In this document: positions 15,542 to 52,104 of the stretch, in pieces
How positions within the stretch are numbered: position 1 is the stretch's first letter
Layout of the letters: the number at the start of each line of letters is the position of its first letter
DNA from: an uncultured Clostridia bacterium
GTDB lineage: Bacteria > Bacillota > Clostridia > Christensenellales > Aristaeellaceae
Assembly: GCA_947600345.1 (NCBI GenBank)
Contig: CANQGC010000001.1
Span: forward strand, 1-52,104
DNA length: 52,104 nt
Direction: 5' to 3'
Program-made: the position numbers and the translations under genes
Notes under the pieces: generated by a model
Told to the model about the DNA's origin: nothing
The model's database searches: none
Seen by the model: only the letters and a program-made list of their open reading frames with translations

Positions 15542-16560
15542 GTTTCCTGATTCGCCAGACACTGATTTACGCGGTTCCCCTGATGATCGTCGCCCTGGCG
15601 GGCGTGTTCGCCGAGCGCAGCGGCATCATCAACCTGGCGCTGGAGGGCCTCATGATCTTCGGCGCGTTCATTGGCGTGCTGTTCGTACGCATCATGCAGC
15701 AGGCGGGCGTGTTTGAAACGTCCATGGGCGTGCTGCCGCTGCAGGGCTTCATGCTGCTTTCGATGCTGGTTTCAGCGGTACTGGGCGCGGTGTTCTCACT
15801 GCTGTTGGCCTTCGCCGCCATCAACCTGCGCGCGGACCAGACCATCGGCGGCACGGCGCTGAACCTGATGGCCCCGGCGCTGGTGCTGTTCTTCATCCGC
15901 ATCATCGCCAACCAGAACACGCTACAGATGGCCTCGGGCGACGCGGCGAGCTGGTTCATGATCAAGAAGAGTATGTTCGGCTACGGCCGCGGCCAGGAGA
16001 TGGGCTTCCTGGGCTCCACCTTCGTGGACAAGGTGTACCTCTCGACGTACATCTGCATACTGATCTACATCGTGCTCTCGATCATCCTATACAAGACGAA
16101 GTTCGGCCTGCGGCTGCGCTCCTGCGGAGAGAACCCCCAGGCCTCGGCCTCGCTGGGCATCAACGTCTACAAGATGCGCTACTGCGGCGTCATCATCTCC
16201 GGCGCGCTGGCGGGCATGGGCGGCTTCGTCTACGCCATGACCACAGCGAACTGCACCTCCAACGGCGACGTCGCCGGCTTCGGCTTCCTGGCGTTGGCGG
16301 TCATGATCTTCGGAAACTGGAAGCCGCTGAACATCTCCGGCGCGGCGCTGCTGTTCGGACTGTTCAAGTGCATCGCCGCCTCCTACTCGAGCCTGGACAT
16401 CAACGGCGACGGCGTGTACCTGCTGGCCCAACTGAACATCAATCCGAACTTCTACCGCCTGCTCCCCTATCTGATTACGCTGCTGGTGCTGGCCTTCACA
16501 TCGAAGAGCTCCCGCGCCCCCAAGGCCGAGGGCATCCCCTACGATCAGTCCACCAGGTAG
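15538..16560 (+). CDS. ABC transporter permease (BMP-type, second permease)
   Basis: 340 aa polytopic protein. ATGA overlap with the upstream permease. Confidence 0.85.
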   Translation: MSFLIRQTLIYAVPLMIVALAGVFAERSGIINLALEGLMIFGAFIGVLFVRIMQQAGVFETSMGVLPLQGFMLLSMLVSAVLGAVFSLLLAFAAINLRADQTIGGTALNLMAPALVLFFIRIIANQNTLQMASGDAASWFMIKKSMFGYGRGQEMGFLGSTFVDKVYLSTYICILIYIVLSIILYKTKFGLRLRSCGENPQASASLGINVYKMRYCGVIISGALAGMGGFVYAMTTANCTSNGDVAGFGFLALAVMIFGNWKPLNISGAALLFGLFKCIAASYSSLDINGDGVYLLAQLNINPNFYRLLPYLITLLVLAFTSKSSRAPKAEGIPYDQSTR

Positions 16561-16570
16561 GAACTGGAGT

Positions 16571-16702
16571 CATCTGCTGCCGCGCTCATGCGGCGGACTC
16601 CTGCCCCGCAGATCATGGGGCAGGAGTTCTGCGTTTCTTCCTTATATTATTCCTTTGTTCGAGGCACGGAATCCGCCCCCATAGATTCGAGGGGCGGATT
16701 CC
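16571..16702 (+). repeat. extragenic multi-hairpin element, copy 1 (module A, no 3' closing strand)
   Basis: CATCTGCTGCCGCG at 16571. Hairpin ACTCCTGCCCC-GCAGATCAT-GGGGCAGGAGT (16597-16627) and hairpin GGAATCCGCCCC-CATAGATTCGA-GGGGCGGATTCC (16668-16702). Confidence 0.8.
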
Positions 16703-16745
16703 TTCGTTTCGTTATTGCCTTTGCCTGTCCCTTCTGCGCGCCCGG

Positions 16746-33298: not shown

Positions 33299-33660
33299 GG
33301 CCGGCGGGGCCGGCAGCCATCTGCTGCCGCGCTGAGGCGACGGAAACCTGCCCCGTAGATTATGGGGCAGGTTTCCTGCGTCTCGTTTCTGATGAAAGCT
33401 TTGTTCGAAGCACGAAATCCAGCCCGTAGATCATGGGCTGGATTTCTTTGTTTTGGCGAACGGGGCATGGGTTCGCAGGCGGCAGCAGAAGGGAGAATCC
33501 AAGGAACCTCAGGTTCCTTGGTAGGAATTCTCAAGGGACAAAGTCCCTTGAGCAGGTCTGGGCAGCGCCTAGCATAACCCCAGCGGCCCGCGCCAAATCT
33601 ATGCCCGGCAATTCGTACAATGGCGTCATCGTTCCATACCGCGGGCCGCCACTAACTCGC
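33297..33660 (+). repeat. extragenic multi-hairpin element, copy 2 (modules A+B)
   Basis: Small hairpin GGCCGGC-GGG-GCCGGC. Closing stem 33320-33330/33479-33489 around hairpins at 33342-33376 and 33414-33446. Then palindromes CCAAGGAACC-TCA-GGTTCCTTGG, CTCAAGGGAC-AAA-GTCCCTTGAG and GGCCCGCG...CGCGGGCC. Confidence 0.85.
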
Positions 33661-33782
33661 AGGGTCCGGGGCGGCAGCCCCGCCGAAGCGCAGCGGAGGC
33701 GTAACCCCAAACCGATCGCTCCATTGCCTCCATATCACGGGCTGTAGCGGATTCTCCTCCTCACGCAGTGCCCGCCGCCAAT

Positions 33783-39820: not shown

Positions 39821-42571
39821 ATGGCAAGGCAAAAGCAACAGCCCGTCTACGAAGATCGATCGGAATCCAGCGGCGCGCCACTGAAGATATTGCTGGCGGT
39901 GGTGTGCTTCGGGCTGGCGGTGCTGCTGATCTATCTGGCCACGGCGCAGCCCCAGGAGGCCACCGCGATGGCCGCCATCCGCGATGTGATGCGCGGCATC
40001 GGCGGCAGCGTGAACCCGGTGCTCTCGCTGGTGCTGGTGTGGATCGGCGTGCTGCTGGTGTTCTCCGCGCGGGGGCGCCGCGTTCGCATGCTGAACGTCA
40101 TCGTCAACGCGCTGCTGTTTCTGTGCCTGTTCACGGCGGTGCAGCTGTTCTCCGCCGGGGAGATATTCGAGCAGCGAATGACCATCACCAGCTTCGCAAA
40201 CTTTGTCAGCCAGTCCTATCAGTACGGCGCGGGCGGCGGCGTGATCGGAGCGCTGCTGGCCTACCCGCTGTTCCGCTTCGCCGGGGGCGCCTGGGGCGGA
40301 TTGATCGTGGTGCTGATCGTGGTGCTGCTGTGCCTCCTGATCACCGGCCGCGCCCAGCGCGCCTACCGCTGGGCCGCGGAGCGCGCCGACGCGGGCGCCC
40401 AGCGCCGGGAGCAGCGGCAGCAGGAGCGCAGAGTAGAACAAATGTTCGATCCTGAGTACGGCCGCCGGATGCAGGCCCCGCAGATGCGCAGGCCGCCCCG
40501 GCAGCCCCAGCCCCAGCGCCGGGTGCGCCCGGAGCGGGACTACATGGTGATCGACGATCCCAAGCCCGTGCGGCGCAATCCGCGCCCGGCGGCAGCCTCC
40601 ACCAGGACGCTCTACGACGAGGCGCCGGAGGCCGGGCGCGCTCCGAGGCCCCAGTCCGGCGGCATGGAGATTCCCAAATCCCTGCGCAAGATACGCGAGA
40701 ACCGCGCCGCCGAGCAGCGCGAGCTCCTGGAGCGGGAGAAGCGCGAAGCGGAGGCAGAGGCGCAGGCGCGGCGGCAGAGCGCCGCGGAGCGCGAGCCCGC
40801 CAGCGACGTGCCCGACTTCTTCACCGTGAAGGACGACATGAAGGATGCGCCCGCCCCCGGCGAAGCGCCCGCCGAGCCGTCCGCCGGCCGCAGGGAATCC
40901 TCCGCCGCGCAGAAGCCGAAGAAGCGCACCGTGGTGGAGGGCGTGCGCGCCCTGGCCGTGGACGACATCGTGCCCGAGACCGAGCCGGAGGACATCGAGG
41001 ACGACGAGCCGCCCTTCGACGTGCCGCACACCGCGGGCAAGCCCACCGCGAAGTCGGCGGAGAAGTCCGCAACCGAGGCGGCCTTCCGCCCCGCCGCGGA
41101 GGCGGAGGACGGCGAGGAGATCTACAACTACCCGCCCATCGACCTGCTGGCCCAGGGCGAGCAGACGCGCGCCACGCAGCTTCAGAAGGACGACGACCAC
41201 CGCAAGGCGGACAAGCTGATCGAGACGCTGGAGAGCTTCGGCATCGAGACCCGGCTGATCGGCATCGCCCACGGCCCCGCCGTCACTCGCTTCGAGCTGC
41301 AGCCCGCGCCGGGCGTCAAGGTCAGCCGCATCACCTCGCTGTCGGACGACATCGCGCTGGGCCTGGCGGCCATGTCCGTGCGCATCGAGGCGCCCATCCC
41401 CGGCAAGGCCGCCGTGGGCGTGGAGATCCCCAACGACAAGGTGGAGATGGTGCGCCTGCGCGACGTGCTGGAGTGCCCCGAGGCCAAGCGCCACCCGTCG
41501 AAGATCGCCGTGGGCCTGGGCAAGGACAACTCCGGCCGCTACATCGTGGCCGACATCGCCAAGATGCCCCACGTGCTCATCGCCGGTCAGACCGGCTCCG
41601 GTAAGTCCGTGTGCATCAACTCCATCATCACGTCGATCCTCTACCGCGCCGCGCCCGACGAGGTGCGCATGATACTGATCGACCCGAAGGTCGTGGAGCT
41701 TTCGATTTACAACGACATTCCGCACCTGATCGCGCCGGTGGTCACCGACCCGAAGAAGGCCAGCTCCGCGCTGGATTGGGCCGTGGCCGAGATGAGCATG
41801 CGCTACAAGCGCTTCGCCGAGCGCGACGTGCGCGACATCAAGGGCTACAATAAGAAGCTGGAGCCGGACGAGAAGCCCATGCCCCAGATCGTGATCGTCA
41901 TCGACGAGCTGGCCGATTTAATGATGGTCGCCCCCGGCGAGGTCGAGGACAGCATCTGCCGCCTGGCCCAGCTTGCCCGCGCGGCGGGCATGCACCTGGT
42001 CATCGCCACCCAGCGGCCGTCGGTGAACGTCATCACCGGCATCATCAAGGCCAACATCCCCACCCGCATCGCCTTCTCCGTGGCCTCCCAGGTGGATAGC
42101 CGCACGATGATCGACCACGGCGGCGCGGAGAAGCTGCTGGGCAACGGCGACATGCTCTTCGTGCCCTCCGGCATCAACAAGCCGCTGCGCGTGCAGGGCG
42201 CCTGGGTCTCCGACGAGGAGGTTCACGCCATCGTGTCCTACATCAAGGCCCGCAGCGAAACCACCTACGACGAGGACGTGGTGGAGAAGATCGAGAACTC
42301 CGTGCGCTCCGACGCCGAGCGCGAGGAGGTGGCCGATGAGTACGACCCGCGCCTGCCCGAGGCCGTGGAGATCGTTATCGAGGCCGGACAGGCCTCCACC
42401 TCCATGCTCCAGCGCCGCATGCGCGTGGGCTACGCCCGCGCAGGCCGCCTCATCGACGAGATGGAGAAGCGCGGCGTGATCGGCGAGGCCGACGGCTCCA
42501 AGCCCCGCAACGTGCTGATGAGCCGCGAGGAATTCAACAATACCTTCGGCGAGGCGCCCGAAGAGCCATGA
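39821..42571 (+). CDS. ftsK: DNA translocase FtsK/SpoIIIE
   Basis: N-terminal TM helices, a low-complexity P/Q/E/A linker, motor domain with Walker A GQTGSGKS, and a C-terminal gamma winged helix (LQRRMRVGYARAGRLIDEME). Confidence 0.95.
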   Translation: MARQKQQPVYEDRSESSGAPLKILLAVVCFGLAVLLIYLATAQPQEATAMAAIRDVMRGIGGSVNPVLSLVLVWIGVLLVFSARGRRVRMLNVIVNALLFLCLFTAVQLFSAGEIFEQRMTITSFANFVSQSYQYGAGGGVIGALLAYPLFRFAGGAWGGLIVVLIVVLLCLLITGRAQRAYRWAAERADAGAQRREQRQQERRVEQMFDPEYGRRMQAPQMRRPPRQPQPQRRVRPERDYMVIDDPKPVRRNPRPAAASTRTLYDEAPEAGRAPRPQSGGMEIPKSLRKIRENRAAEQRELLEREKREAEAEAQARRQSAAEREPASDVPDFFTVKDDMKDAPAPGEAPAEPSAGRRESSAAQKPKKRTVVEGVRALAVDDIVPETEPEDIEDDEPPFDVPHTAGKPTAKSAEKSATEAAFRPAAEAEDGEEIYNYPPIDLLAQGEQTRATQLQKDDDHRKADKLIETLESFGIETRLIGIAHGPAVTRFELQPAPGVKVSRITSLSDDIALGLAAMSVRIEAPIPGKAAVGVEIPNDKVEMVRLRDVLECPEAKRHPSKIAVGLGKDNSGRYIVADIAKMPHVLIAGQTGSGKSVCINSIITSILYRAAPDEVRMILIDPKVVELSIYNDIPHLIAPVVTDPKKASSALDWAVAEMSMRYKRFAERDVRDIKGYNKKLEPDEKPMPQIVIVIDELADLMMVAPGEVEDSICRLAQLARAAGMHLVIATQRPSVNVITGIIKANIPTRIAFSVASQVDSRTMIDHGGAEKLLGNGDMLFVPSGINKPLRVQGAWVSDEEVHAIVSYIKARSETTYDEDVVEKIENSVRSDAEREEVADEYDPRLPEAVEIVIEAGQASTSMLQRRMRVGYARAGRLIDEMEKRGVIGEADGSKPRNVLMSREEFNNTFGEAPEEP

Positions 42572-43260
42572 TCCGCCGCTTCCCACTGCTGCGCAGCGCG
42601 AATGATCTGGCCGCGCTGGTGAACGAGGTCGGCTTCGTGCCCTTCTTCATCAACGAGATCCCCGGCTTCTCCATAGAAGAGAGCACGCCCGGCGAGCTCT
42701 GGTTCGAGGAGGGCGCCGACGGCCCCTGGGAGTGGAAGGATCGCACCATCCAAGGCGCGGGCTGCGCCTATGGCAAGTTCTACCGGGGCCGCGCCATGTA
42801 CATAAGCCGCGAATGGTTTCCGGACTTCTGTAACTACCGCCGCGACGGCTACGACTTCGAGGGCTTCTATAACGACGGCCACGCCGGCAAGCGGGATAAG
42901 CGCCTGCTGGACGCGCTGGCGGAGACCGGCCCGGCGCAGGCGCGGGATCTGAAGCGCCAGGCTAAGTTCGATAAGGACGAGCGCCGGGGCTTCGATGGAT
43001 TGCTGACAAGGCTGCAGATGCAGACGTTTCTGCTGATCGACGGCATTGAGTACCGCACGGACCGCTTCGGCCAGCGCTACGGCTGGGGCGTGTGCCGCTA
43101 CGCGACGCCGGAGCAAAGGTTCGGAGAAGGCTTCCTGGCGGAAGCCTATGAAAGGGAGCCGAAGGAATCCGGACAAAGGATACTGGAGCAGCTTCATAAG
43201 CTCCTGCCCGACGCCAGCGAAAGCGCGCTCGCTGCAGTCCTGGGCAAAGGCCCATCGTAA
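42568..43260 (+). CDS. hypothetical protein, possibly an AlkZ/YcaQ-related winged-helix protein
   Basis: 230 aa with coding-like composition. ATGA overlap with the ftsK stop. The family guess has low certainty. Confidence 0.6.
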   Translation: MIRRFPLLRSANDLAALVNEVGFVPFFINEIPGFSIEESTPGELWFEEGADGPWEWKDRTIQGAGCAYGKFYRGRAMYISREWFPDFCNYRRDGYDFEGFYNDGHAGKRDKRLLDALAETGPAQARDLKRQAKFDKDERRGFDGLLTRLQMQTFLLIDGIEYRTDRFGQRYGWGVCRYATPEQRFGEGFLAEAYEREPKESGQRILEQLHKLLPDASESALAAVLGKGPS

Positions 43261-43263
43261 CCC

Positions 43264-43500
43264 CAGAAGGGAGAATCCAAGGAACCTCAGGTTCCTTGGC
43301 AGGAATTCTTAAGGGACAGCGTCCCTTAAGCAGGTCTGGGCGGAGCCCAGCGTCACCCCAGCGGCCCGCGGTATCCATCCAAAGCCCGACAAAGTGCCCC
43401 ACCGCCCCACCGCCCCCATACCGCGGGCCGCCGCGGCGCCTTTCAAATTGGAAAGCCAAGGCTTTCCAATTTGAAACAGCCGCCACTAACTCTCAAGCGA
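43264..43500 (+). repeat. extragenic multi-hairpin element, copy 3 (module B only)
   Basis: Starts CAGAAGGGAGAATCC. Palindromes CCAAGGAACC-TCA-GGTTCCTTGG, CTTAAGGGAC-AGC-GTCCCTTAAG, TCTGGGC-GGA-GCCCAG, GCGGCCCGCGGTAT...ATACCGCGGGCCGC and TTCAAATTGGAAAGCC-AAG-GCTTTCCAATTTGAA. Confidence 0.85.
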
Positions 43501-43557
43501 ACCCCGCCCGTCCCCTACCCCCATCCCGCCGCCAAATACGAGAGAGGAAGCAATCCC

Positions 43558-44889
43558 ATGAGCAAAACCAATGCGCAAAAGCCCACCGCAGGCGTCGTCT
43601 CCCTGGGCTGCGCGAAGAACCTGGTGGACTCGGAAAACCTGCTGGGCATGCTCCGCGACCGGGGCTACGAGATCGTCTCCGATCCCTCCGAAGCGGAGAT
43701 CATATTCGTCAACACCTGCGGCTTCATCGAGTCCGCCAAGCAGGAATCCATCGACACCATCCTGGAGATGGCCGAGTACAAGAAGACCGGCAAATTGAAG
43801 CAGCTCTTCGTCACCGGCTGCCTGGCCCAGCGCTACGCAAGCGAGCTCGCGCAGGAGCTGCCCGAGGTGGACGGCTTCATGGGCGTGGCCGACTACGCCC
43901 GGCTCTACGACATGCTGGACGAGGCCAATTCCGGCGAACGCCCGGTCTACATGCGCGACGGCGAGCGCTTCTTCCAGTGCGGCCGCGTGCTCAGCGCCAA
44001 CGCCTTCTCCGCCTACGTCAAGATCTCCGACGGCTGCGATAACCGCTGTACCTACTGCGCGATCCCGCTGATCCGCGGCAGCTACGCCTCGCGCCCCTTC
44101 GACGACATCGTGGACGAGTGCAGAAGCCTCGCCGCACAGGGCGTGACGGAGCTCACGCTGATCGCCCAGGACACCAGCCGCTACGGCTGCGACCTCGGCG
44201 ACGGCCACTACCAGCTGCCGGAGCTCCTGCGCGCGGTCAGCGAGATCGAGGGCGTGCACTGGGTGCGCGTGCTCTACTGCTACCCGGACAGCACCGAGGA
44301 CCGGCTGCTGGACGAGATCGCCAATAATCCCAAGGTCGCGCCCTACCTGGACCTGCCGCTGCAGCACATCAACGACGACCTGCTCCGACGGATGAACCGC
44401 CGGGGTGACGCGGCGTGGATCAGGAGCCGCCTGGCGGAGTGCCGGAAGCGGGGCATCATCGTGCGCACCACGATGATCGTGGGCTTCCCGGGCGAGACGG
44501 ACGCGCAGTTCGCGGAGCTGCTGGACTTCGTGAAGGAGGCTCGCTTCGACCGGCTGGGCGCGTTCACCTACTCGCCGGAGGAGGGCACGCCCGCTGAGCG
44601 CATGCCGGACCAGATCGACGAGGAAGTGAAGGCCGAGCGGCTGGACCAGCTGATGATGCTGCAGCAGGCGATCTCCGCCGAGCTCATGGCGGAGCGCATC
44701 GGCACGGAGTGCGAGGTGCTGGTGGAGGGGCAGGACGAGGACGGCTGGTACGGCCGGTCCATCTACGAGGCCCCGGAGTCCGACGGTGTGATCCATTTGA
44801 ATGCGGACCGGGAGCTGGTTCCCGGGGAATACGTCCGCGCGCGGGTGGTCGCCGCGGACGCCTACGACCTGACGGCGGAGGTGCTGTGA
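43558..44889 (+). CDS. rimO: ribosomal protein S12 methylthiotransferase RimO
   Basis: Start MSKTNAQKPTAGVVSLGCAKNLVDSE after GAGAGGAAG. Radical SAM motif CDNRCTYC. C-terminal TRAM domain. Confidence 0.9.
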   Translation: MSKTNAQKPTAGVVSLGCAKNLVDSENLLGMLRDRGYEIVSDPSEAEIIFVNTCGFIESAKQESIDTILEMAEYKKTGKLKQLFVTGCLAQRYASELAQELPEVDGFMGVADYARLYDMLDEANSGERPVYMRDGERFFQCGRVLSANAFSAYVKISDGCDNRCTYCAIPLIRGSYASRPFDDIVDECRSLAAQGVTELTLIAQDTSRYGCDLGDGHYQLPELLRAVSEIEGVHWVRVLYCYPDSTEDRLLDEIANNPKVAPYLDLPLQHINDDLLRRMNRRGDAAWIRSRLAECRKRGIIVRTTMIVGFPGETDAQFAELLDFVKEARFDRLGAFTYSPEEGTPAERMPDQIDEEVKAERLDQLMMLQQAISAELMAERIGTECEVLVEGQDEDGWYGRSIYEAPESDGVIHLNADRELVPGEYVRARVVAADAYDLTAEVL

Positions 44890-44890
44890 G

Positions 44891-45445
44891 ATGAATCTTC
44901 CGAATAAACTAACGATGCTTCGCGTGGTGATGATTCCACTGTTCGTGATTCTGGCGCTGGTGCAGCGGCAGTGGGCCCAGTACCTGGCGCTGCTGGTGTA
45001 CATCGCGGCCTGCGTCACGGATCTGTTCGATGGAAAGATCGCCCGGGCGCGGCACCTGGTCACCGACTTCGGCAAGTTTGCCGATCCCATCGCGGACAAG
45101 CTGCTGGTGATGTCGGCGCTCATTGTGCTGGTGGATTCCCAGAGGATGCCCGCCTGGGTGTGCATCGTGATGCTGGCGCGGGAGTTCATCATCTCCGGCC
45201 TGCGCATGGTGGCGGCGGGCAAGGGCACCGTGATCGCCGCGGCGATGCTGGGCAAGCTCAAGACGGTGTTCCAGATGAGCGCCACCATCGCGCTGATGCT
45301 GCTGGTGCCGGTACAGGGGCGGCCGCTGCTGGGCCACTTCGGCGTGGTGCTGGCAAACATACTGATGTACGTCGCCGCCGTGCTGACCATCGTCAGCGGC
45401 GTGGAGTACGTCATGAAGAACATCGACTGCATATCGGACATGTAG
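44891..45445 (+). CDS. pgsA: CDP-diacylglycerol--glycerol-3-phosphate 3-phosphatidyltransferase
   Basis: MNLPNKLTMLRV... with a CDP-alcohol phosphatidyltransferase motif (D.FDG..AR....T.FG.F.DP.ADK). Confidence 0.9.
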   Translation: MNLPNKLTMLRVVMIPLFVILALVQRQWAQYLALLVYIAACVTDLFDGKIARARHLVTDFGKFADPIADKLLVMSALIVLVDSQRMPAWVCIVMLAREFIISGLRMVAAGKGTVIAAAMLGKLKTVFQMSATIALMLLVPVQGRPLLGHFGVVLANILMYVAAVLTIVSGVEYVMKNIDCISDM

Positions 45446-45596
45446 CAGGCAGGGCCTGCGCCCGTCTGCTGCCGCGTTGGAGCGACGGACTTTTGCCCCG
45501 TAGATTATGGGGCAAAAGCCCTGCGTCTGTGCGTCGGTTGGTTCCTTTGTTCGGAGCACGAAATCCAGCCCGTGGATTATGGGCTGGATTTCTTCG
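45446..45596 (+). repeat. extragenic multi-hairpin element, copy 4 (module A, no 3' closing strand)
   Basis: Hairpin GCAGGC-AGG-GCCTGC, then CGTCTGCTGCCGCG, then hairpins at 45489-45519 (loop GTAGATTAT) and 45560-45592 (loop GTGGATTAT). Confidence 0.8.
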
Positions 45597-45615
45597 CTGG
45601 AATTGGGGTTGGGCG

Positions 45616-45643
45616 TTGACTTGTAGGGAAATTTTGTTATAAT
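45616..45643 (+). promoter_or_regulatory. sigma-A type promoter with extended -10
   Basis: TTGACT, 16-nt spacer ending TGt, TATAAT (45638-45643). Confidence 0.65.
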
Positions 45644-45680
45644 TAGAGAAGAAGTTTTGGATGAAGGGGAGGCCTTTTCA

Positions 45681-47036
45681 TTGCCGGATTTTGATCGGAT
45701 GTCGCTGAACGAGCTCGTTCGGCCCGAGGGCTGGGACTGCGACTGCGGGAAGCATCACGTATGTGAATTGAAGTATCTGAAGATCGCGCGCGGGGCGCTG
45801 GCCTCCGTGCCGGAGATGGTGCGCGCGCTCGGGCGGACGAAGCCCTTCGTCGTCTGCGATTCCAACACCTACGCCGTGGCGGGGGAGAGGGTCTGCCAGA
45901 TCCTGGATGCGGCGGGCATTCCGCACGTGTGCTACGTCATTCCCGGCGAGAAGCTCTCGCCCGCCGAGTGGGAGGTCGGCAGCGCCGTGATGCAGTTCGA
46001 TCCCTCCTGCGACCTGCTGCTGGGCGTGGGCTCCGGCGTCATCAACGACACCTGCAAGGTGCTCAGCCACGCCATCGGCATCCCTTCCGCCATCGTCGGC
46101 ACCGCGCCCTCGATGGACGGCTACGCCTCGAACTCCTCCTCGATGGAGGTCAACCACGTGAAGGTCTCGCTCTACAACCACTGCCCCATCGGCGTGCTTC
46201 TGGACGTGGACGTGCTGGCCCAGGCGCCGATGCGCATGCTCTGGGCGGGCTTCGGCGACATGGTGGCCAAGTACGTGGCCATCTGCGAGTGGCGCATCTC
46301 CCACCTGGTCACCGGCGAGTACTACTGCGAGAACGTGGCGCAGATGATGCGCGCGGCGCTCAAGCGCGTGGTCGACGCCTCGGACGGCATCGCCAGCCGC
46401 GACCCGGACGCCATACAGTCCATCGCCGAGGGCCTGCTGATCGCGGGCATCGCCATGGCCTACGCCGAGATCTCCCGCCCGGCCAGTGGGCTTGAGCATT
46501 ACTTCTCCCACATGTGGGAGATGATGGCGCTGGAGCGCGGCGTCCCCTACGACCTGCACGGCATACAGGTGGGCGTGGGCACGGTGCTGACGCTCCGGCT
46601 CTACCGCTGGATCCGGACGCTGACGCCCGACCGCGCGCGGATGGAGGCCCACGCCGCCGCCTTCGATCCGATCGCCTGGGAGGCCCAGGTGCGGCGCATC
46701 TTCGGCAAAACCGCCGACGAGATCGTGTCCATCGAGCACAAGACCCACAAGAACGACCCCGACCGCCTGCAGAGGCGCATCGATGCCATCTGCGCGCACT
46801 GGGACGAGATCACCGCCATCATCGACGCCGAGCTTCCGGACTTCGACGGACTCTACGCGAAGATGAAGGCCACCGGAATGCCCACGGAGCCCCGGGACAT
46901 CGACATCCCCGATTCGGACGTGATCGACGCCTACCTGGGCGCGCGGGACATTCGCGACAAGTACCTCTCCTGCTCAATGCTCTGGGACATGGGCCTCGAG
47001 CGGGAAGCCGCGGAATTCCTGCGCGGCGCACTATAA
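45681..47036 (+). CDS. iron-dependent ADH-superfamily enzyme, probable sn-glycerol-1-phosphate dehydrogenase (AraM/EgsA-like)
   Basis: Frame open from 45657. TTG 45681 lies 8 nt after AAGGGGAGG; alternatives are TTG 45657 and ATG 45696. Has GVGSGVINDTCK and the DHQS-like/Fe-ADH fold pattern. Assignment is from recalled family resemblance. Confidence 0.6.
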   Translation: MPDFDRMSLNELVRPEGWDCDCGKHHVCELKYLKIARGALASVPEMVRALGRTKPFVVCDSNTYAVAGERVCQILDAAGIPHVCYVIPGEKLSPAEWEVGSAVMQFDPSCDLLLGVGSGVINDTCKVLSHAIGIPSAIVGTAPSMDGYASNSSSMEVNHVKVSLYNHCPIGVLLDVDVLAQAPMRMLWAGFGDMVAKYVAICEWRISHLVTGEYYCENVAQMMRAALKRVVDASDGIASRDPDAIQSIAEGLLIAGIAMAYAEISRPASGLEHYFSHMWEMMALERGVPYDLHGIQVGVGTVLTLRLYRWIRTLTPDRARMEAHAAAFDPIAWEAQVRRIFGKTADEIVSIEHKTHKNDPDRLQRRIDAICAHWDEITAIIDAELPDFDGLYAKMKATGMPTEPRDIDIPDSDVIDAYLGARDIRDKYLSCSMLWDMGLEREAAEFLRGAL

Positions 47037-47112
47037 ATGTAATAGAAAAGTAAAGCTTTTCCAGGAACTTTTTAACCAGGGGGCAGTCCAAGGAATAAAG
47101 GAGTGGTGATTC

Positions 47113-47958
47113 ATGAAAAAGGCAGTTCTCCGGTTTGTCATTGCGCTTCTGACGATCTCCGTCGCTCTCACCGTCTTGACCGGAATCGCACTTGCGGATG
47201 CGATCTACGCCTCCGGCGGCGATTCCTACATCCGCAGCCAGCCGAGCCTGTCCGGCGCGCAGGTGGGTCTCTTCCCGGAAGGCGCCGTGGCCAGCTACCT
47301 GGGCAACAGCTCGGTGGACAGCCGAGGCGTGACCTGGTACTACATCTCCTACAACGGCAAGACCGGTTGGGTGTCCTCCCGCTACACTTCCTTCTCCGGA
47401 AGCTACAGCGCGCCGAGCTACAGCGTGCCGAGCTACGTCGTTCCCGGCTACAGCGTCCCCAGCTACAGCAGCGGCACGATCTACGCCTCCGGCGGCGATT
47501 CCTACATCCGCAGTCAGCCGAGCCTGTCCGGCACGCAGCTCGGAACCTTCCCGGAGGGCGCGGCGGCCAGCTACCTGGGCAACAGCTCGGTGGACAGCCG
47601 GGGCGTGACCTGGTACTACATCTCCTACAACGGCAAGACGGGCTGGGTGTCCTCCCGCTACACCTCCTTCACCGGAGGCTACAGCTACAGCGTGCCGAGC
47701 TACGTCGTGCCCGGCTATGTCGTGCCCGGCTACAGCGTGCCCTCCTACAGCGGCAGCGTCGTGTATGGCTCCGGCGGCGACTCCTACATCCGCAGCCAGC
47801 CGAGCCTGTCCGGCACGCAGATCGGAACCCTTCCGGAGGGCGCGGCGGCCAGCTACCTGGGCAACAGCTCGGTGGACAGCCGAGGCGTGACCTGGTACTA
47901 CATCTCCTACAACGGCAAGACGGGCTGGGTGTCCTCTCGCTACACCTACCTGTCCTGA
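47113..47958 (+). CDS. secreted protein with three SH3b (bacterial SH3) repeats and Tyr/Ser/Pro/Val-rich linkers
   Basis: Signal peptide MKKAVLRFVIALLTISVALTVLTGIALA. Three units of GGDSYIRSQPSLSG...GNSSVDSRGVTWYYISYNGKTGWVSSRYT. Confidence 0.85.
   Translation: MKKAVLRFVIALLTISVALTVLTGIALADAIYASGGDSYIRSQPSLSGAQVGLFPEGAVASYLGNSSVDSRGVTWYYISYNGKTGWVSSRYTSFSGSYSAPSYSVPSYVVPGYSVPSYSSGTIYASGGDSYIRSQPSLSGTQLGTFPEGAAASYLGNSSVDSRGVTWYYISYNGKTGWVSSRYTSFTGGYSYSVPSYVVPGYVVPGYSVPSYSGSVVYGSGGDSYIRSQPSLSGTQIGTLPEGAAASYLGNSSVDSRGVTWYYISYNGKTGWVSSRYTYLS
47203..47952 (+). repeat. in-frame tandem DNA repeat (3 units, period about 276-282 bp) inside the SH3b gene
   Basis: Units start near 47203, 47479 and 47761, with long near-identical runs (e.g. 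TACATCCGCAGCCAGCCGAGCCTGTCCGGC). Confidence 0.85.
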
Positions 47959-47972
47959 TCGAAAATTTCAAA

Positions 47973-47999
47973 GGCGGTCGCGAAAGCGGCCGTCTTTTT
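47973..47999 (+). terminator. rho-independent terminator
   Basis: GGCGGTCGC-GAAA-GCGGCCGTC (two G-U pairs) followed by TTTTT. Confidence 0.65.
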
Positions 48000-48093
48000 G
48001 AACAAAAGTGCTCAACCGGTGCGCTATACTGATATCAGAAAGTGAATCGAGCGGACGCGCCGCCGATTCTACAAAAACAAGGAGGGGTTCATC

Positions 48094-48843
48094 ATGAAGA
48101 AACTGTTCACCAAGAAGCTCGCGCTCGCAATGCTGCTCTGCCTGCTGCTGACCGCCATCTCCGCCACGGCCCTGGCCGACGGCATCACCGCCGTGGAGGA
48201 GCACTGCTACATCCGCACCGCGCCGGGACTGAACGGGGAGATCATCTACACGGTGCCCGTCGGCGCGACGGCGACCTACCTGGGCGATACGTCGGTGGAC
48301 AATCGCGGCGTGACCTGGTACAAGGCCACCTACGACGGCGTCACCGGCTGGATGTCCGGCCTGCAGATCAGCCTGAGCTCCGACTACAGCTCCTATGACG
48401 ATTACGGTTACGACCTGATCGCCGTGGAGGAGCACTGCTACATCCGCACCGCGCCGGGGCTGAACGGGGAGATCATCTACACGGTGCCGGTGGGTGCGGC
48501 GGCGGCCTACCTGGGCGATACGTCGGAGGACAACCGCGGCGTGACCTGGTACAAGGCCGACTACAACGGCATCCGGGGCTGGATGTCCAGCCTGCAGGTC
48601 AAGCTGAGCTACGGCGGCTCCGCTGGCTCCGCCGGCGGTGTCATCACGGCCGTGGAGGAGCACTGCTACATCCGCACCGCGCCGGGGTTGAACGGCGAGA
48701 TCATCTACACGGTGCCGGTGGGCGGCAAGGCGACCTACCTGTACGATACGTCGGTGGACAATCGTGGCGTGACCTGGTACAAGGCCACCTACGACGGCGT
48801 CACCGGCTGGATGTCCGGCCTCCAAATCCGCACAAACTTTTGA
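48094..48843 (+). CDS. secreted protein with three SH3b repeats
   Basis: Signal peptide MKKLFTKKLALAMLLCLLLTAISATALA. Three units of AVEEHCYIRTAPGLNGEIIYTVPVG...DNRGVTWYKA.Y.G..GWMS.LQ. Confidence 0.85.
   Translation: MKKLFTKKLALAMLLCLLLTAISATALADGITAVEEHCYIRTAPGLNGEIIYTVPVGATATYLGDTSVDNRGVTWYKATYDGVTGWMSGLQISLSSDYSSYDDYGYDLIAVEEHCYIRTAPGLNGEIIYTVPVGAAAAYLGDTSEDNRGVTWYKADYNGIRGWMSSLQVKLSYGGSAGSAGGVITAVEEHCYIRTAPGLNGEIIYTVPVGGKATYLYDTSVDNRGVTWYKATYDGVTGWMSGLQIRTNF
48181..48831 (+). repeat. in-frame tandem DNA repeat (3 units, period about 225-234 bp) inside the SH3b gene
   Basis: Units start near 48181, 48415 and 48640, sharing GCCGTGGAGGAGCACTGCTACATCCGCACCGCGCCGGG. Confidence 0.85.
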
Positions 48844-49330
48844 CGGCGGGGCCGTCGGCCATCTGCTGCCGCGTTTAAGCGACGGACTTGGGGCCCGTAG
48901 ATTATGGGCCCCAAGTCCTGCGGTGCGTTTCTGAAGGAGCGATTGTACGAAGCACGACCTCTGGCCCCATAGATCCGAGGGCCAGAGGTCTTCGTTTGGG
49001 GAACGGGAGCTTGGCCTAAACGCGGCAGCAGAAGGGAGAATCCAAGGAACCTCAGGTTCCTTGGCAGGAATTCTTAAGGGACAGAGTCCCTTAAGCAGGT
49101 CTGGACGGAGTCCAGAACGGGTCCGGGCGGAGCCCAGCGTTACTCCTGCGGCCCGCGGTATTCAAATCATTGCTTGGGAATGCGAACCAAGGCTCCATCG
49201 CCTCCATACCGCGGGCCGCGCGAGGCGAGTTTTTGGAATGGGAAGCCAGAAGGCTTCCCATTCCAAAAGAGCAAACGGACGCTTCGCTTTGCCCGCCCTA
49301 ACGCTGCGACAGAACCAAACCTCGGCATTT
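48842..49330 (+). repeat. extragenic multi-hairpin element, copy 5 (full length, modules A+B)
   Basis: GACGGC-GGG-GCCGTC. 16-bp closing stem 48862-48877/49017-49032 around hairpins at 48884-48918 and 48956-48990. Palindromes at 49042-49064, 49073-49095 and 49100-49116, a 14-bp long-range stem 49148-49161/49206-49219, and a 17-bp hairpin at 49231-49268. Confidence 0.9.
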
Positions 49331-49493
49331 GCCAGAACAAGAAGGCTTTCCCCGATATTCTGAGTGCCATCCAGATTCCCGGAGGGCGCTCTTTTGTTTG
49401 CTCAGAAAACTCAAAAGTAGAGTATGGATTCAAAAAATAGACATAATAGCATGGTATTTAGCCATAAGTCGGCACAATATTAGCATTCTCCCA

Positions 49494-49522
49494 TTGCTAG
49501 TTAGCATCCCAAAAGCTACAAT
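49494..49522 (+). promoter_or_regulatory. candidate promoter for the small SH3b gene
   Basis: TTGCTA, 17-nt spacer, TACAAT, in an AT-rich tract. Confidence 0.45.
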
Positions 49523-49608
49523 ATACCCGTACCAAGGAAGCGCCAATCAAGCGGCGCTCCCCCAAGAATCCAGAATCCATACTTCCAATAATGAAAGGGG
49601 AATTTACC

Positions 49609-49914
49609 ATGAAGAACACTCTGAAGATTATGATCGCGATCATCCTGAGCCTGACTCTGATCCTTGGAACCGCCGCGCTGGCGTGCGACGAGGGCGGATA
49701 CTTCTACGGAGCCGTGGTCGCCACGGGCGGCGACAGCTACATTCGAGACGAACCGAACCTGAACGGAAGCATCCTCGGCAGCCTGGGCGAAGGTAGGACG
49801 GCGATCTTCTACGGATACAGCTCGTTTGACAGCCGCGGGGTAGAGTGGTACCTGATCGACACCGGCAGCACATTCGGCTGGGTGTCCTCCCGGTACACGA
49901 CGCTGTACTACTAA
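49609..49914 (+). CDS. small secreted protein with a single SH3b repeat
   Basis: AAAGGGGAA RBS then MKNTLKIMIAIILSLTLILGTAALA. GGDSYIRDEPNLNGS...SRGVEWYLI...GWVSSRYT. Confidence 0.75.
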   Translation: MKNTLKIMIAIILSLTLILGTAALACDEGGYFYGAVVATGGDSYIRDEPNLNGSILGSLGEGRTAIFYGYSSFDSRGVEWYLIDTGSTFGWVSSRYTTLYY

Positions 49915-49940
49915 TGATAGCAAGAGGGGGAAAGGAAGCG

Positions 49941-49968
49941 GAGGCCCGGAGCGAAAGCTCCGGGCCTC
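49941..49968 (+). terminator. terminator-like hairpin after the small SH3b gene
   Basis: GAGGCCCGGAGC-GAAA-GCTCCGGGCCTC, a 12-bp stem. The T tail is weak. Confidence 0.5.
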
Positions 49969-49992
49969 TATGTGTCGAGGAAGGCTTCGTGG

Positions 49993-50509
49993 TTTGGAGA
50001 ATGCCGGAGGTTTGGTTCAGGCGTGGCGTTCGGGCGTGGTAAAGCGAAGCGTCCGTTTGCTCTTTTGGAATGGGAAGCCCTGGGCTTCCCATTCCAAAAC
50101 TCGCTTCGCGCGGCCCGCGGTATGGAGGCGATGGGGCGTTGGTTCGCATTGCCGGGCAACGACTTGAATACCGCGGGCCGCCGGGGTGACGCCGGGCTCC
50201 GCCCGGACCCGCTGGGCTCCGCCCAGACCCGTTCTGGGCTCTGCCCAGACCTGCTTAAGGGACTCTGTCCCTTAAGAATTCCTGCCAAGGAACCTGAGGT
50301 TCCTTGGATTCTCCCTTCTGCTGCCGCGCTGTGAGCCAAACCCCCGTTCCCCAAACGAAGACCTCTGGCCCTCGGATCTATGGGGCCAGAGGTCGTGCCT
50401 CGTACTTCGCTCCCTACAGAAACGCACCGCAGGACTTTGGCCCCATAATCTACGGGGCCAAAGTCCGTCGCCCATACGCGGCAGCAGATGGCCGCCCGCA
50501 CTGCGGGCT
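49993..50509 (-). repeat. extragenic multi-hairpin element, copy 6 (full length, inverted orientation)
   Basis: The reverse complement aligns with copy 5 over about 480-500 nt, through all modules, with an extra TCTGGGC-type hairpin. The module A end (CATCTGCTGCCGCG on the minus strand, 50477-50490) faces the recA promoter. Confidence 0.9.
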
Positions 50510-50523
50510 GGTTCGCGAAAAAA

Positions 50524-50537
50524 TAAACGTGTGTTCG
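50524..50537. promoter_or_regulatory. possible LexA (Cheo-type SOS) box
   Basis: TAAACGTGTGTTCG versus CGAACRNRYGTTCG. The right half is perfect and the left half reads AAAC. It lies about 25 nt upstream of the recA -10. Confidence 0.35.
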
Positions 50538-50558
50538 ATATACTTCCGGGGAGGGATG

Positions 50559-50567
50559 TGTTATAAT
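50559..50567 (+). promoter_or_regulatory. extended -10 element of the recA promoter
   Basis: TGtTATAAT, 36 nt upstream of the recA ATG. No good -35. Confidence 0.5.
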
Positions 50568-50602
50568 AAGGAAAGGAAATTAACCATGGAGGTAGCAGAT
50601 AG

Positions 50603-51718
50603 ATGGCAGTGGATAAGAAGGCGGAAAAGAAGCCCGCGGAGAAAAAGTTTGGCGATGACCGCAAGAAGGCGCTGGAGATTGCGCTGGGTAAGATTGAGAA
50701 GGACTTCGGCAAGGGCTCGGTGATGAAGCTGGGCGCGGCGGCGGATCGCATGCAGGTGGAGGTCATCCCCACGGGCTCGCTGCAGCTGGACTTCGCGCTG
50801 GGCGTGGGCGGACTGCCGAAAGGGCGCATCATCGAGATCTACGGCCCGGAATCCTCCGGTAAGACCACCGTGGCGCTGCACTGCATCGCGGAGGCGCAGA
50901 AGCAGGGCGGCACGGCGGCGTTCATCGACGCGGAGCACGCGCTGGACCCGGTCTACGCGGAGCACCTGGGCGTGGACATCGACGAGCTCTACGTCGCCCA
51001 GCCGGACAACGGCGAGCAGGCGCTGGACATCTGCGAGGCGCTGGTGCGCTCGGGCGCGATCGACATCGTGGTCATCGACTCGGTGGCGGCGCTGGTGCCC
51101 AAGGCGGAGATCGAGGGCGACATGGGCGACAGCCACGTGGGCCTGCAGGCCAGATTGATGTCCCAGGCCCTGCGCAAGCTGGCGGGCGTGATCGCGAAGA
51201 CGAACGCCATTGCGATCTTCATCAACCAGCTGCGCGAGAAGGTGGGCGTGGTGTACGGCAATCCGGAGACGACGACGGGCGGCAAGGCTTTGAAGTTCTA
51301 CGCCTCGGTGCGGCTGGACATCCGCAAGGGCGAGCCGATCAAGGACGGCTCGGAGGTCATCGGCAACCGCACGAAGATCAAGGTGGTGAAGAACAAGGTT
51401 GCGCCGCCGTTCCGCTCCTGTGTGGTGGACATACTCTACGGCGAGGGCATCTCGGCCTCGGGCGAGCTACTGGATCTGGCCGTGGAGCGGGAGCTGATCA
51501 AGAAGTCGGGCGCGTACTACAGCTACAATGGCGAGCGGATCGGCCAGGGCCGCGACAATGCGCGCAAGTTCCTGATGGATCATCCGGACGTCTACGAGGC
51601 GCTGGAGAAGGCCATCCGCGAGTCCTTTGCCGCCACTCCCGCCGCGGAGCCCGCCATGACCATCGAGCCCATCGACGATCCCGACGACGACCTCGACGAC
51701 TTCGACCTCGACTCCTAG
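50603..51718 (+). CDS. recA: recombinase RecA
   Basis: Walker [10 protein letters not shown], with FIDAEHALD and [20 protein letters not shown]. Acidic C-terminal tail. Confidence 0.97.
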
Positions 51719-52104
51719 GCGGCAGTGCCGCCTTCCATCTGCTGCCGCGACTGGGCGACGGACTTTGGCCCCGTAGATTATGGGGCCAAAGTCCTGCGGT
51801 GCGTTTCTAAAGGAGCGATTGTGCAGAGCGACGAAATCCTGCCCCATAGATCCGAGGGCAGGATTTCTGCGTTTTGGCAATGGGACGCAGTGGGACAGCG
51901 CGGTAGCAGAGGGGAGAATCCAAGGAACCTCAGGTTCCTTGGCAGGTCTGGGCAGCGCCCAGCGTGGCCCCTGAGGCTGCGGTTTGTAGGCGGCTGCGGG
52001 TTGAGGAGAAAAGGCAACGCCCAGCAGGCGGCAGCAGAAGGGAGAATCCAAGGAACCTCAGGTTCCTTGGCAGGTCTGGGCAGCGCCCAGCGTAGCCCCT
52101 GAGG
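51719..52104 (+). repeat. extragenic multi-hairpin element, copy 7 (module A plus two tandem short module-B units; truncated by the window end)
   Basis: GGCGGCA-G-TGCCGCC. Closing stem 51738-51749/51899-51910 (one G-U pair) around hairpins at 51760-51794 and 51833-51867. GGAGAATCCAAGGAACCTCAGGTTCCTTGGCAGGTCTGGGCAGCGCCCAGCGT occurs twice (from 51912 and from 52041). Confidence 0.85.

Follow-up and report, generated by a model that had tools for sequence, protein, structure and literature searches.

Composite transposons and MITE-flanked units carry their cargo bracketed between two copies of an IS or a MITE. Invertible switches (fimS, hin, shufflons and the invertons of gut bacteria) are bounded by short repeats of tens of bp with a dedicated recombinase nearby, and their inversion alters which gene is expressed. 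Dispersed hairpin repeats have been much studied in Proteobacteria and pneumococci, and barely in gut Clostridia. The REP/BIME elements of Proteobacteria are GC-rich palindromic hairpins in intergenic DNA, mostly just 3′ of coding regions (PMC3733652, PMC2817692), whose termini often lie at a stop codon or even provide it (PMC3733652); the REP survey of Di Nocera et al. 2013 makes no mention of Firmicutes (PMC3733652). A RAYT gene (Y1 HUH transposase) in the genome is a further hallmark of REP/BIME. The BOX elements of Streptococcus pneumoniae (boxA-boxB(n)-boxC), in the part of Croucher et al. 2011 drawn on here, are modular, with a module content that varies and internal modules that are tandemly amplified, are rich in secondary structure, are transcribed together with their neighbours and turn over slowly (PMC3049150).

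The locus treated here lies on a contig of an uncultured Clostridia bacterium of the Aristaeellaceae (CANQGC010000001.1, assembly GCA_947600345.1), the whole of which, 52,104 nt, we call the window. By Pfam, the region 42568–51718 holds genes for an AlkZ-related protein (AlkZ-rel), a radical-SAM/TRAM protein of rimO or miaB type, a pgsA-like CDP-alcohol phosphatidyltransferase, Fe-ADH, three SH3b proteins and RecA. Just upstream of recA, two copies of a hairpin repeat (c5 and c6) in inverted orientation enclose a small SH3b gene, an arrangement that a first-pass annotation had read as a composite, transposon-like or invertible cassette. It resembles a composite transposon in having inverted repeat copies around a single promoter-bearing gene, present in one lineage and absent in relatives, and an invertible switch in having inverted repeats around a promoter-containing segment. 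To us the block looks like one that was relocated or duplicated by recombination, not like a proven transposon or genetic switch.

Structure and placement of the repeat family

The two arms belong to a previously undescribed family of modular, hairpin-mosaic intergenic repeats in a clade of uncultured gut Clostridia. The family unit is a chain of at least seven different hairpins, 160–500 nt long, in fixed order and one orientation. Module A consists of a small terminal hairpin, the invariant end motif CTGCTGCCGCG-N5-GCGACGGA (24 nt, 19 bases specified), two 13-bp hairpins (H1 and H2) with (G/A)TAGAT loops, and a long-range stem around them; module B adds at least five further hairpins. The likeness to REP/BIME lies in dispersal, position 3′ of ORFs, plausible RNA hairpins, mosaic structure and a tie to genome rearrangement. 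However, REP/BIME are proteobacterial and built of 20–40-bp units in alternating orientation, whereas these clostridial units are long chains with a single orientation; the GTAG tag of REP stands unpaired at the end of the palindrome, whereas in the 35-nt H1 and H2 GTAG/ATAG occurs only inside the loop; and the CGTC REP families have 8–9-bp stems and 4–5-nt loops, against 13 bp and 9–10 nt here despite an invariant GACG 5′ of H1. With BOX the family shares a modular build with varying module content and tandem amplification of internal modules, extensive structure, presumed co-transcription, slow turnover and a Gram-positive host, but the sequences are unrelated, and most of the clostridial copies are co-oriented with the upstream gene.

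Alignment of the copies establishes covariation of the stems. For module A (15 copies) 96.8% of cells were paired and both sides had changed in 21 of the 41 pairs, values that none of 500 shuffles reached, while slid controls were only 36–50% paired; module B had compensatory changes in 14 of its 43 pairs. G-U made up about 1% of stem cells, without strand asymmetry, although this leaves too few wobble pairs for a strand test of G-U against A-C. Such scarcity of G-U would fit selection on RNA no better than it would mutational quasipalindrome correction or DNA-level palindromes.

Two family motifs were confined to the elements, one with 8 matches against 0.10 expected and the other with 11 against 0.17. 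Rfam gave no match to the whole window at the gathering threshold, and chance matches only below threshold in 48800–50600; a literature search found no described equivalent repeat in Clostridia. A profile scan of genome contigs with the module-A motif returned mostly chance matches in high-GC genomes, and true copies in one rabbit-gut MAG (Lapin-003-2__bin46); of the others, L007 (UMGS1603) carried a partial module A (E = 2e–5), L063 was marginal and L013 had no model match. Two JGI metagenome scans yielded one chance match for the family and none for the cassette.

Placement of the copies relative to stop codons follows a rule, as judged from annotated ORFs: in the window and three other organisms, 11 elements begin no more than 10 nt from a stop codon that ends a long co-oriented ORF, one more (L017) begins 35 nt 3′ of such a codon, and c6 stands out as the clear exception. 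For BOX, the part of Croucher et al. 2011 used here states no such rule (PMC3049150). Module A stands 3′ of the stop codon of recA not only in the window but also in L003 and L071, its stems differing by compensatory changes; L001 has a degenerate version of it there. The window's copy after recA, c7 (51717–52104, + strand), is canonical, is inverted relative to c6 and has a 57-nt exact match in common with it; it is truncated within a 128-nt tandem duplication by the contig end, 390 nt past recA. Another copy, c3, separates the stop codon of AlkZ-rel from the RBS of rimO; compared with L001 it was cleanly gained or lost. From such comparisons, family copies are kept long at orthologous sites and behave as long-lived 3′-of-gene elements, unlike insertion sequences.

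By analogy with REP/BIME we infer that the family forms co-transcribed 3′-end structures, putatively terminators or barriers to mRNA decay. A scan for consensus terminators in the sense orientation found no hairpin plus T-run in c5, c6 or c7, and the arm hairpins are trailed only by the partial U-rich strings TGCGTTTCT and TTCGTTTGG. What sets the family apart is the strict start at stop codons, the invariant end motif and covarying stems that are almost purely Watson–Crick.

The inverted pair and the SH3b gene between its arms

The left arm, c5 (48856–49355, + strand), is a canonical copy and the 3′ element of the upstream gene with which it is co-oriented, an ORF for a 249-aa protein with three SH3b repeats (48094–48843, + strand; three Pfam SH3_3 stretches, E = 5e–33) whose stop codon (48841–48843) adjoins the arm. 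Its small terminal hairpin, GACGGC-GGG-GCCGTC (48842–48856), overlaps the final two bases of that stop codon, and helix 1 has changed on both sides in four of five pairs. On the same strand follow, in module A, stem P1 (5′ strand 48860–48873, 3′ strand 49021–49035), H1 (48884–48918) and H2 (48956–48990); in module B, hairpins at 49042–49064, 49073–49095, 49098–49137 and 49230–49268 and a long stem pairing 49148–49161 with 49206–49219; and a tail (49269–49355). The right arm, c6 (49975–50494, − strand), is a reversed orphan. Its parts are a tail (49975–50058); a module-B hairpin (50063–50099) and long stem; three GGTCYGGGC hairpins, also of module B (50190–50254, 50254–50276 and 50285–50307); P1 (3′ strand 50314–50328, 5′ strand 50477–50490); H2 (50360–50394) and H1 (50432–50466); and a terminal small hairpin at 50494–50508, GCCCGC-AGT-GCGGGC as read on the − strand, which differs from the one in contig L073 (below). 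Module-B ends thus face inward and module-A ends outward, as the first-pass annotation had it.

That annotation had judged the arms identical at about nine positions in ten and closer to each other than to any other copy, and both statements stand. A repeat search found five collinear inverted segments (48846–49293 vs. 50038–50504) with 77–97% complementarity. Local alignment of c5 with the reverse complement of c6 gave 440 identical columns of 478 (92.1%), and a wider alignment (48856–49355 vs. 50494–49975) gave 452 of 525 columns (86%, including 30 gap columns; about 91% without them), c6 having one extra 20-nt hairpin unit relative to c5. Within these lies an 84-nt exact inverted match (49021–49104 with 50245–50328). 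Other pairs of copies in the window were 73–88% identical over shorter spans, and a GACCTCTGGCCC stem and a TTTTGGAATGGGAAGCC hairpin were found in c5 and c6 alone, as was a tail of about 90 nt past the last hairpin. Because of this higher identity and these exclusive variants, sequence comparison identifies c5 and c6 as sister copies. The pair had been placed at 48857–49330 and 49993–50492, limits that proved too short; since the homology reaches further inward, the spacer measures about 619 nt (49356–49974), not the 660 bp first given.

On its sequence features, the SH3b gene in this spacer forms an autonomous unit: it has its own promoter, encodes a predicted signal peptide together with the SH3b domain and is followed by a hairpin. 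Its regulatory region (49356–49608, + strand) comprises an AT-rich tract in which TAGCAT, a repeated motif noticed earlier, occurs three times (49449, 49483 and 49504), the candidate promoter already suspected, TTGCTA-17-TACAAT (49494–49522, with TTGCTA at 49494 and TACAAT at 49517–49522), a conserved 5′ UTR motif, CGTACCAAGGAAG, and the RBS AAAGGGG. The gene (49609–49914, + strand) encodes a secreted protein with a signal peptide and a single SH3b domain (Pfam SH3_3, E = 1.3e–5, at 25.7 bits against a cut-off of 27 bits), of 101 aa, or 107 aa if an upstream ATG is used, in place of the 102 aa first reported. It is paralogous to the repeats encoded at 47113–47958, its homologues include P0121 (98%) and P0126 (57%), and the same gene is found on NCBI contigs of 18.2, 16.6, 7.6 and 4.2 kb (encoding P0130, P0131, P0136 and P0132). 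Exact-protein look-ups with the window's RecA and the 101-aa protein gave no match. What had been called a terminator after the gene amounts to a GC-rich 12-bp hairpin (49941–49968, + strand) with no T-run on the + strand.

The cassette had also been described as lower in GC. Low GC (41–45%) is real but limited to 49350–49600, that is, to the promoter and 5′ UTR; other promoter regions of the contig are similarly low (45% at 47025–47174, 48% at 50550–50699), and the coding GC3 of 0.81 is ordinary, within the contig's range of 0.74–0.96. We therefore rejected foreign origin as an explanation of this dip.

Past the outer end of c6 by a few bases begins the conserved recA promoter region (50513–50602, + strand), where similarity to L001 and L003 starts. 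It holds a LexA-like box, AAAC-GTGT-GTTC (50525–50536), and an extended −10, TGT-TATAAT (TATAAT at 50562–50567). recA itself (50603–51718, + strand; Pfam RecA_N and RecA_C) has homologues that are 80–94% identical.

The block in related species and near-conspecific contigs

Three related species were informative upstream of recA (L004 and L071 were uninformative there). In L001 and L002, Fe-ADH is directly followed by recA; L003 has the order Fe-ADH, SH3 gene, terminator, recA; none of the three has the cassette or any repeat upstream of recA. Sequence comparison demonstrates absence of the block from the recA locus of these relatives, and the whole block between SH3 gene and recA promoter is, among the genomes compared, in the window lineage only. 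L001 carries the AlkZ-rimO-pgsA block inverted, on the 3′ side of recA, and a copy of the element occupies the junction that is visible; by this comparison, family repeats coincide with, and so mark, other rearrangement breakpoints near recA.

The cassette also turned up elsewhere, the kind of presence/absence evidence that the first-pass annotation had asked for. Two near-conspecific contigs carry it with the right arm, each adjoining a different promoter: L073 with the full c6 arm, including a c6-type H1, and L068, which starts inside c5, with module B of c6 only. Outside c6 the window, L068 and L073 each have a different flank, which in every case is a + strand promoter. These are SPAdes contigs of 1.1–1.6 kb at about 4x coverage, their left flanks are not covered, and they share 55–57-nt exact repeats at which chimeric joins are possible at k = 55; the finding of the cassette and c6 arm beside two other genes accordingly reads as a hint of relocation that chimeric joins could also produce. 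L068 retains the cassette promoter and 5′ UTR, and L069 their −10/5′ UTR part; in L069 the orthologue of the cassette gene belongs to a tandem arrangement at a different locus, with a plain terminator but none of the repeats. A derivation of the arms' inner tails from the ancestral flanks of the cassette was rejected, the similarity in L069 being only 12 nt (E = 8.8). The gene upstream of c5 has a 71% homologue in unrelated context in L072.

These contigs bear on whether the window's arrangement is real. A MAG contig could be mis-joined or mis-oriented across repeats whose copies have 47–84-nt exact runs in common, assemblies do break at them (the window ends in c7, L068 begins in c5 and L071 only 7 nt ahead of recA), and the junction of c6 with recA is present in the window only. 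We nonetheless regard an assembly artefact as very improbable: the order c5 tail, cassette, c6 in L068, and the cassette with full c6 in L073, come from two independent assemblies, and even a chimera would presuppose a copy in reverse orientation ahead of the recA promoter.

They bear equally on mobility. It is conceivable, though we doubt it, that c5, cassette and c6 form a non-autonomous foldback or composite mobile unit, with the gene mobilised in trans to terminator positions between tandem genes. Sister arms with their module-A ends outward, a recA locus without the block in related species, a right edge only a few bases from conserved promoter DNA, and the clean gain or loss of family modules exemplified by c3 all suit such a unit, as would the cassette and c6 arm beside other promoters, if the short contigs that show them are not chimeric. 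Other family copies are old residents, the left arm is itself a normal resident copy, and searches of plasmids, phages and IMG/VR with the element gave no match.

Recombination, mobility or function

The hallmarks of a composite transposon were sought in the block itself. The expected flanking direct repeats are not there: no target-site duplication was found at its outer ends, whether the flanks are taken as ending in AAACTTTTGA and beginning with TGGTTCGCG or as the two differing small hairpins. The copies have no terminal inverted repeats, their ends being GGCCATCTGCTGCC and a variable tail. The arms code for no transposase: five ORFs of 100–177 aa in the arms and c7 had no Pfam match at E ≤ 0.1, and no reading frame could be conserved through the compensatory stem changes seen among copies. 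A scan of eight genes, AlkZ-rel to recA, turned up neither a transposase nor a recombinase domain. Of the composite or transposon-like reading, then, the sister arms, the lineage-specific block and the cassette elsewhere survive, but a target duplication, terminal repeats and a transposase are wanting and the left arm is resident. A foldback unit of a clostridial REP/BIME-like mosaic, for which some putative machinery would read the CTGCTGCCGCG-N5-GCGACGGA end and terminal hairpin and leave no target duplication, seems unlikely to us; were it so, the family would be a new kind of structured, stop-codon-adjacent mobile element.

The invertible reading fared worse. We hold it highly improbable that the arms bound a programmed DNA switch whose inversion is carried out by RecA or a site-specific recombinase. 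The 84-nt exact match would suffice for homologous recombination, and the pair adjoins recA, yet the internal orientation is identical in three independent assemblies (window, L068 and L073). Inversion would have no on/off effect on the SH3b gene, because its promoter is enclosed by the arms as well and would turn with it. Known switches have short exact repeats, whereas these arms extend over 500 nt and differ by about 9%; identity of only about 91% with indels also argues against frequent recombination between them, and no recombinase domain was found among the eight genes scanned.

Could c6 have been retained for a function? It might insulate or terminate, as a structure between the SH3b gene and the SOS-regulated recA promoter, or form with c5, in a read-through transcript, a duplex of about 480 bp to be cut by RNase III. 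All its hairpins are kept, and two compensatory pair changes in H1 relative to c5 count in favour of selection on both arms, so far as base changes can indicate it. The window and L068 agree at 99.3% of positions in module B of c6, above the 96.4% of the cassette coding sequence, although gene conversion among copies may account for this. The SH3b hairpin has no T-run, so read-through toward recA is plausible, and in the window and L073 the arm ends 3–45 nt upstream of a promoter. But the hairpins of c6 lie in reverse orientation without following U-rich tracts, and related species do with a plain terminator, or none at all, in front of recA; we think retention for such a role improbable.

We infer, instead, a recombinational origin for the pair and no programmed function. 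The reading we prefer, at about an even chance, is that c5 and c6 are an inverted duplication of the hairpin repeat: recombination or replication template-switching at palindrome-rich dispersed repeats would most likely have yielded an inverted duplicate of the arm, and the same event would have brought in or trapped the paralogous SH3b gene unit. The three differing c6 flanks count against this explanation, since a mobile unit accounts for three promoters more simply than random rearrangement. If the pair does move its gene as a unit, uncultured gut bacteria would have a way of shuffling genes for small surface proteins that needs no transposase; if the pair is immobile, it is an example of repeats making long inverted repeats and assembly breaks beside a core gene.

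The cruciform or RNA duplex that the arms had been proposed to form upstream of the recA promoter is physically possible as a putative structure. The arms folded far more stably than shuffled controls, with z = −11.8 and −9.9. Each arm alone already folds very stably.

An inverted pair of repeat copies around an SH3b gene

The window holds seven copies of an intergenic hairpin-mosaic repeat family, built of module A and/or module B: c1 (about 16555-16718, module A only), c2 (about 33301-33744), c3 (about 43261-43542, module B only), c4 (about 45446-45604, module A only), c5 (48856-49355) and c7 (51717 to the contig end, 3' of recA) on the forward strand, and c6 (49975-50494) on the minus strand. 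A repeat search of the window matched 48846-49293 to 50038-50504 as five collinear inverted segments with 77-97% complementarity, and in local alignment c5 and the reverse complement of c6 were identical in 440 of 478 columns (92.1%), bearing out the first-pass annotation of an inverted pair of ~0.5 kb, identical at about nine in ten positions and closer to each other than to other copies, since the remaining copy pairs showed 73-88% identity over shorter spans. A wider alignment of the arms (48856-49355 and 50494-49975) gave 452 identical columns of 525, 30 gap columns included, with one additional 20-nt hairpin unit of GGTCTGGGC type in c6. Among the copies, c5 and c6 alone have the GACCTCTGGCCC stem at H2 (one of two 13-bp hairpins of module A) and the TTTTGGAATGGGAAGCC hairpin, as the annotation had also proposed, and a ~90-nt tail 3' of the last hairpin is likewise exclusive to them; these features identify the arms as sister copies, not independent family members. 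Two compensatory pair changes separate them at H1, the other 13-bp hairpin, showing that both arms have kept their hairpins, and each is far more stably folded than its shuffled sequences (z = -11.8 and -9.9). The first ~100 nt of c6 share states with c7 at 8 sites and with c5 at 4, and the remainder with c5 at 23 and c7 at 1, a split affinity compatible with change in c5 alone or with gene conversion over a short stretch.

The spacer between the arms (49356-49974) measures ~619 nt, not the ~660 bp first reported, and makes up a full gene unit: an AT-rich stretch containing three TAGCAT motifs, a predicted promoter (TTGCTA-17-TACAAT), an RBS 5' of the SH3b gene, an ORF for a 101-aa protein (one residue fewer than annotated; the promoter and TAGCAT motifs stand) with signal peptide and SH3_3 domain, and a 12-bp hairpin. 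Its supposed low GC holds at 49350-49600 only (41-45%), that is, for promoter and 5' UTR, which are like other promoter regions of the contig; the coding part, with GC3 of 0.81, is inside the contig range. L068, a near-conspecific contig, conserves the gene plus the promoter/5' UTR core, and another contig, L069, carries a 57%-identical orthologue in tandem copies at a different locus, adjoining the gene for a carbonic anhydrase; a plain terminator follows there, and family repeats are absent. TAGCAT or TTAGYA-like repeats recur in the cassette promoter (window 49440-49550, L068 280-400, L069 240-365), and a -10/5' UTR string, TACAATAT.CGTACCAAGGAAG, is conserved in all three; together these look like an operator and leader common to this small SH3b gene family. 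Adjacent genes at 47113-47958 and 48094-48843 encode secreted proteins with three SH3b repeats each, in DNA tandem repeats of 276 nt and about 230 nt.

Structure, placement and turnover of the repeat family

Module A comprises a terminal hairpin of 5-6 bp, an invariant string CTGCTGCCGCG-N5-GCGACGGA, the two 13-bp hairpins, set at 72-nt spacing and with loops of (G/A)TAGAT type, and on the 3' side a strand, CGCGGCAGCAG, that folds back to pair with the invariant string. Module B has at least five further hairpins, one with an invariant 10-bp stem (GCGGCCCGCG with CGCGGGCCGC). Two family motifs were confined to the elements (8 matches vs 0.10 expected, and 11 vs 0.17). Covariation was assessed in 15 module-A copies, taken from the window and from three further organisms, against 500 shuffles and slid controls: 96.8% of pair cells were standard pairs and both sides had changed in 21 of 41 pairs, values matched by none of the shuffles, with slid controls only 36-50% paired; in module B 14 of 43 pairs were compensatory. 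G-U made up only about 1% of pair cells, with no surplus over A-C mismatches, so that either strand may be the functional one and selection may act on RNA or on DNA hairpins. Stems that are 96.8% Watson-Crick, with many double changes but so little G-U, are unusual for selected RNA, and hairpins at the DNA level, or quasipalindromes corrected through template-switching, would fit the pattern. Quasipalindrome correction by mutation is a possible non-selective contributor.

More intriguing to us than the inverted pair are the family's invariant end motif and its stop-codon rule: a long co-oriented ORF has its stop codon no more than 10 nt from the start of eleven elements, and 35 nt upstream of a twelfth (contig L017). 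In the window the preceding genes are those for an ABC permease, GroEL, an AlkZ-related protein, a pgsA-like protein, the SH3 protein and recA, and the same placement is found in L003, L014, L015, L024 and L067. Canonical copies in the window all follow + strand genes (6/6; 6 of about 25), and none follows the ~19 minus-strand genes, a pattern that may stem from replication-strand bias or from the small sample. The left arm conforms to the rule and begins at the triple-SH3b gene's TGA; c6, the sole minus-strand copy, has no co-oriented gene upstream and breaks it, its module-A end directed at the recA promoter. That c6 acts as an insulator or through dsRNA we consider quite improbable. With c7 (51717-52104), c6 (49975-50512) brackets recA in inverted orientation, module-A ends inward, with a 57-nt exact inverted match (50418-50474 with 51752-51808).

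Copies of the family are long-established and also turn over. The recA stop codon is followed by module A in the window, L003 and L071, with stems that differ yet are compensated, and by a degenerate module A in L001. Copy c3 (43261-43542) lies exactly between the AlkZ-related stop codon and the rimO RBS, where L001 has 17 nt only (5041-5059); comparison of these sites showed no target duplication, and c3 is a clean gain or loss. After pgsA, the window's element has module A alone, and that of L001 degenerate A + B. The family was found outside the window in these closest recA relatives (L001/L002, L003, L071) and in the rabbit-gut Clostridia MAG Lapin-003-2__bin46, in which module-A units, three or more in a tandem array (L066 1864-2484, 234-nt period), run off the contig end. 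Assembly breaks fall at or beside copies elsewhere too (L071 1-8, L068 1), and the window contig ends inside a 128-nt tandem duplication in c7 (51900-52104).

No Rfam family was matched by the elements, and plasmid, phage and IMG/VR collections held nothing resembling them. Nearest in working are REP/BIME (PMC3733652, PMC2817692), alike in position, hairpins, mosaic build and association with rearrangement; pneumococcal BOX elements (PMC3049150) are alike in modularity and Gram-positive host. The defining features of GTAG- or CGTC-tagged REPs, of MITEs and of composite transposons were not found. The c5/c6 pair resembles MITE- or IS-flanked composite units in geometry only, and is an interspersed hairpin-mosaic repeat making a long inverted repeat around a gene.

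The recA locus in relatives and the origin of the pair

In L001 and L002 (recA 94% identical in amino acids) Fe-ADH is followed directly by the recA promoter, whereas in L003 (91%) one SH3_3 gene and a strong terminator come between the two. The recA promoter region, with a LexA-like box (AAAC-N4-GTTC) and -10 TGnTATAAT, is kept in the window and all three, its conserved DNA starting at 50513, a few bases past the outer end of c6; the c5...c6 block is therefore lineage-specific. The Fe-ADH-recA interval of related species holds zero or one SH3b gene, and the window, L002 and L003 each have a different gene 5' of Fe-ADH. In L001 (2694-5757) an inverted AlkZ-rimO-pgsA block follows recA; an element copy occupies the recA-pgsA junction that is visible there, and c4 and c7 the corresponding window positions, which suggests that family repeats mark rearrangement breakpoints. 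The best-supported reading, to which we give an even chance, is that c5 belongs 3' of the SH3 gene as a resident element and c6 is its inverted duplicate, the pair and a paralogous SH3b gene unit having arisen through recombination or template-switching at palindrome-rich dispersed repeats, in a region visibly prone to rearrangement.

The cassette gene is one of nine members of a 90% cluster, whose contexts were examined on two ENA contigs. L068 (1565 nt, 4.6x coverage) matches window 49179-50330 at 93.8% identity, with order and orientation kept; past c6 module B, in place of module A and recA, come a promoter and a membrane protein that matches Band_7 weakly. L073 (1131 nt, 3.9x) spans the cassette (49486 onward) and the whole of c6, whose H1 is of c6 type; its terminal small hairpin is unlike the window's, and the right flank consists of TTGAAA-17-TATAAT and then a gene starting MNEKQMLDLAAEMGF. 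That the window arrangement is itself a misassembly seems very remote. The SH3b coding sequences of the two contigs share 96.4% identity with that of the window, against 82-86% for housekeeping genes of the L001 species, so these contigs come from close relatives or hold paralogous copies. Their differing right flanks are the strongest hint that the unit may relocate, although chimeric joins are possible, as family copies share 56-57-nt exact runs and both are low-coverage SPAdes contigs with the left flank outside their extent.

A mobile foldback or composite unit would account for the right flank varying among window, L068 and L073; we nevertheless consider it unlikely, because the outer flanks of the block show no target duplication (the direct repeats sought there), terminal repeats are lacking and no transposase was found in the arm ORFs. 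What survives of the transposon-like cassette first proposed is a lineage-specific block, absent at recA in relatives and possibly relocating. The proposal that it inverts fared worse: a programmed switch between the arms is highly improbable, the orientation being the same in the three assemblies (window, L068, L073), on/off logic absent, the arms diverged, and no recombinase domain present in the eight genes scanned from the AlkZ-related gene to recA. An 84-nt exact inverted match shared by c5 and c6 would permit rare RecA-dependent inversion. At the outer end of c6, the 15-nt terminal hairpin is completely different in the window (GCCCGC-AGT-GCGGGC, 50494-50508) and L073 (GGCGGC-GGG-GCCGCC, about 992-1006), with about 93% identity over the arm outside it; no part of the family varies more than this hairpin's outer stem.
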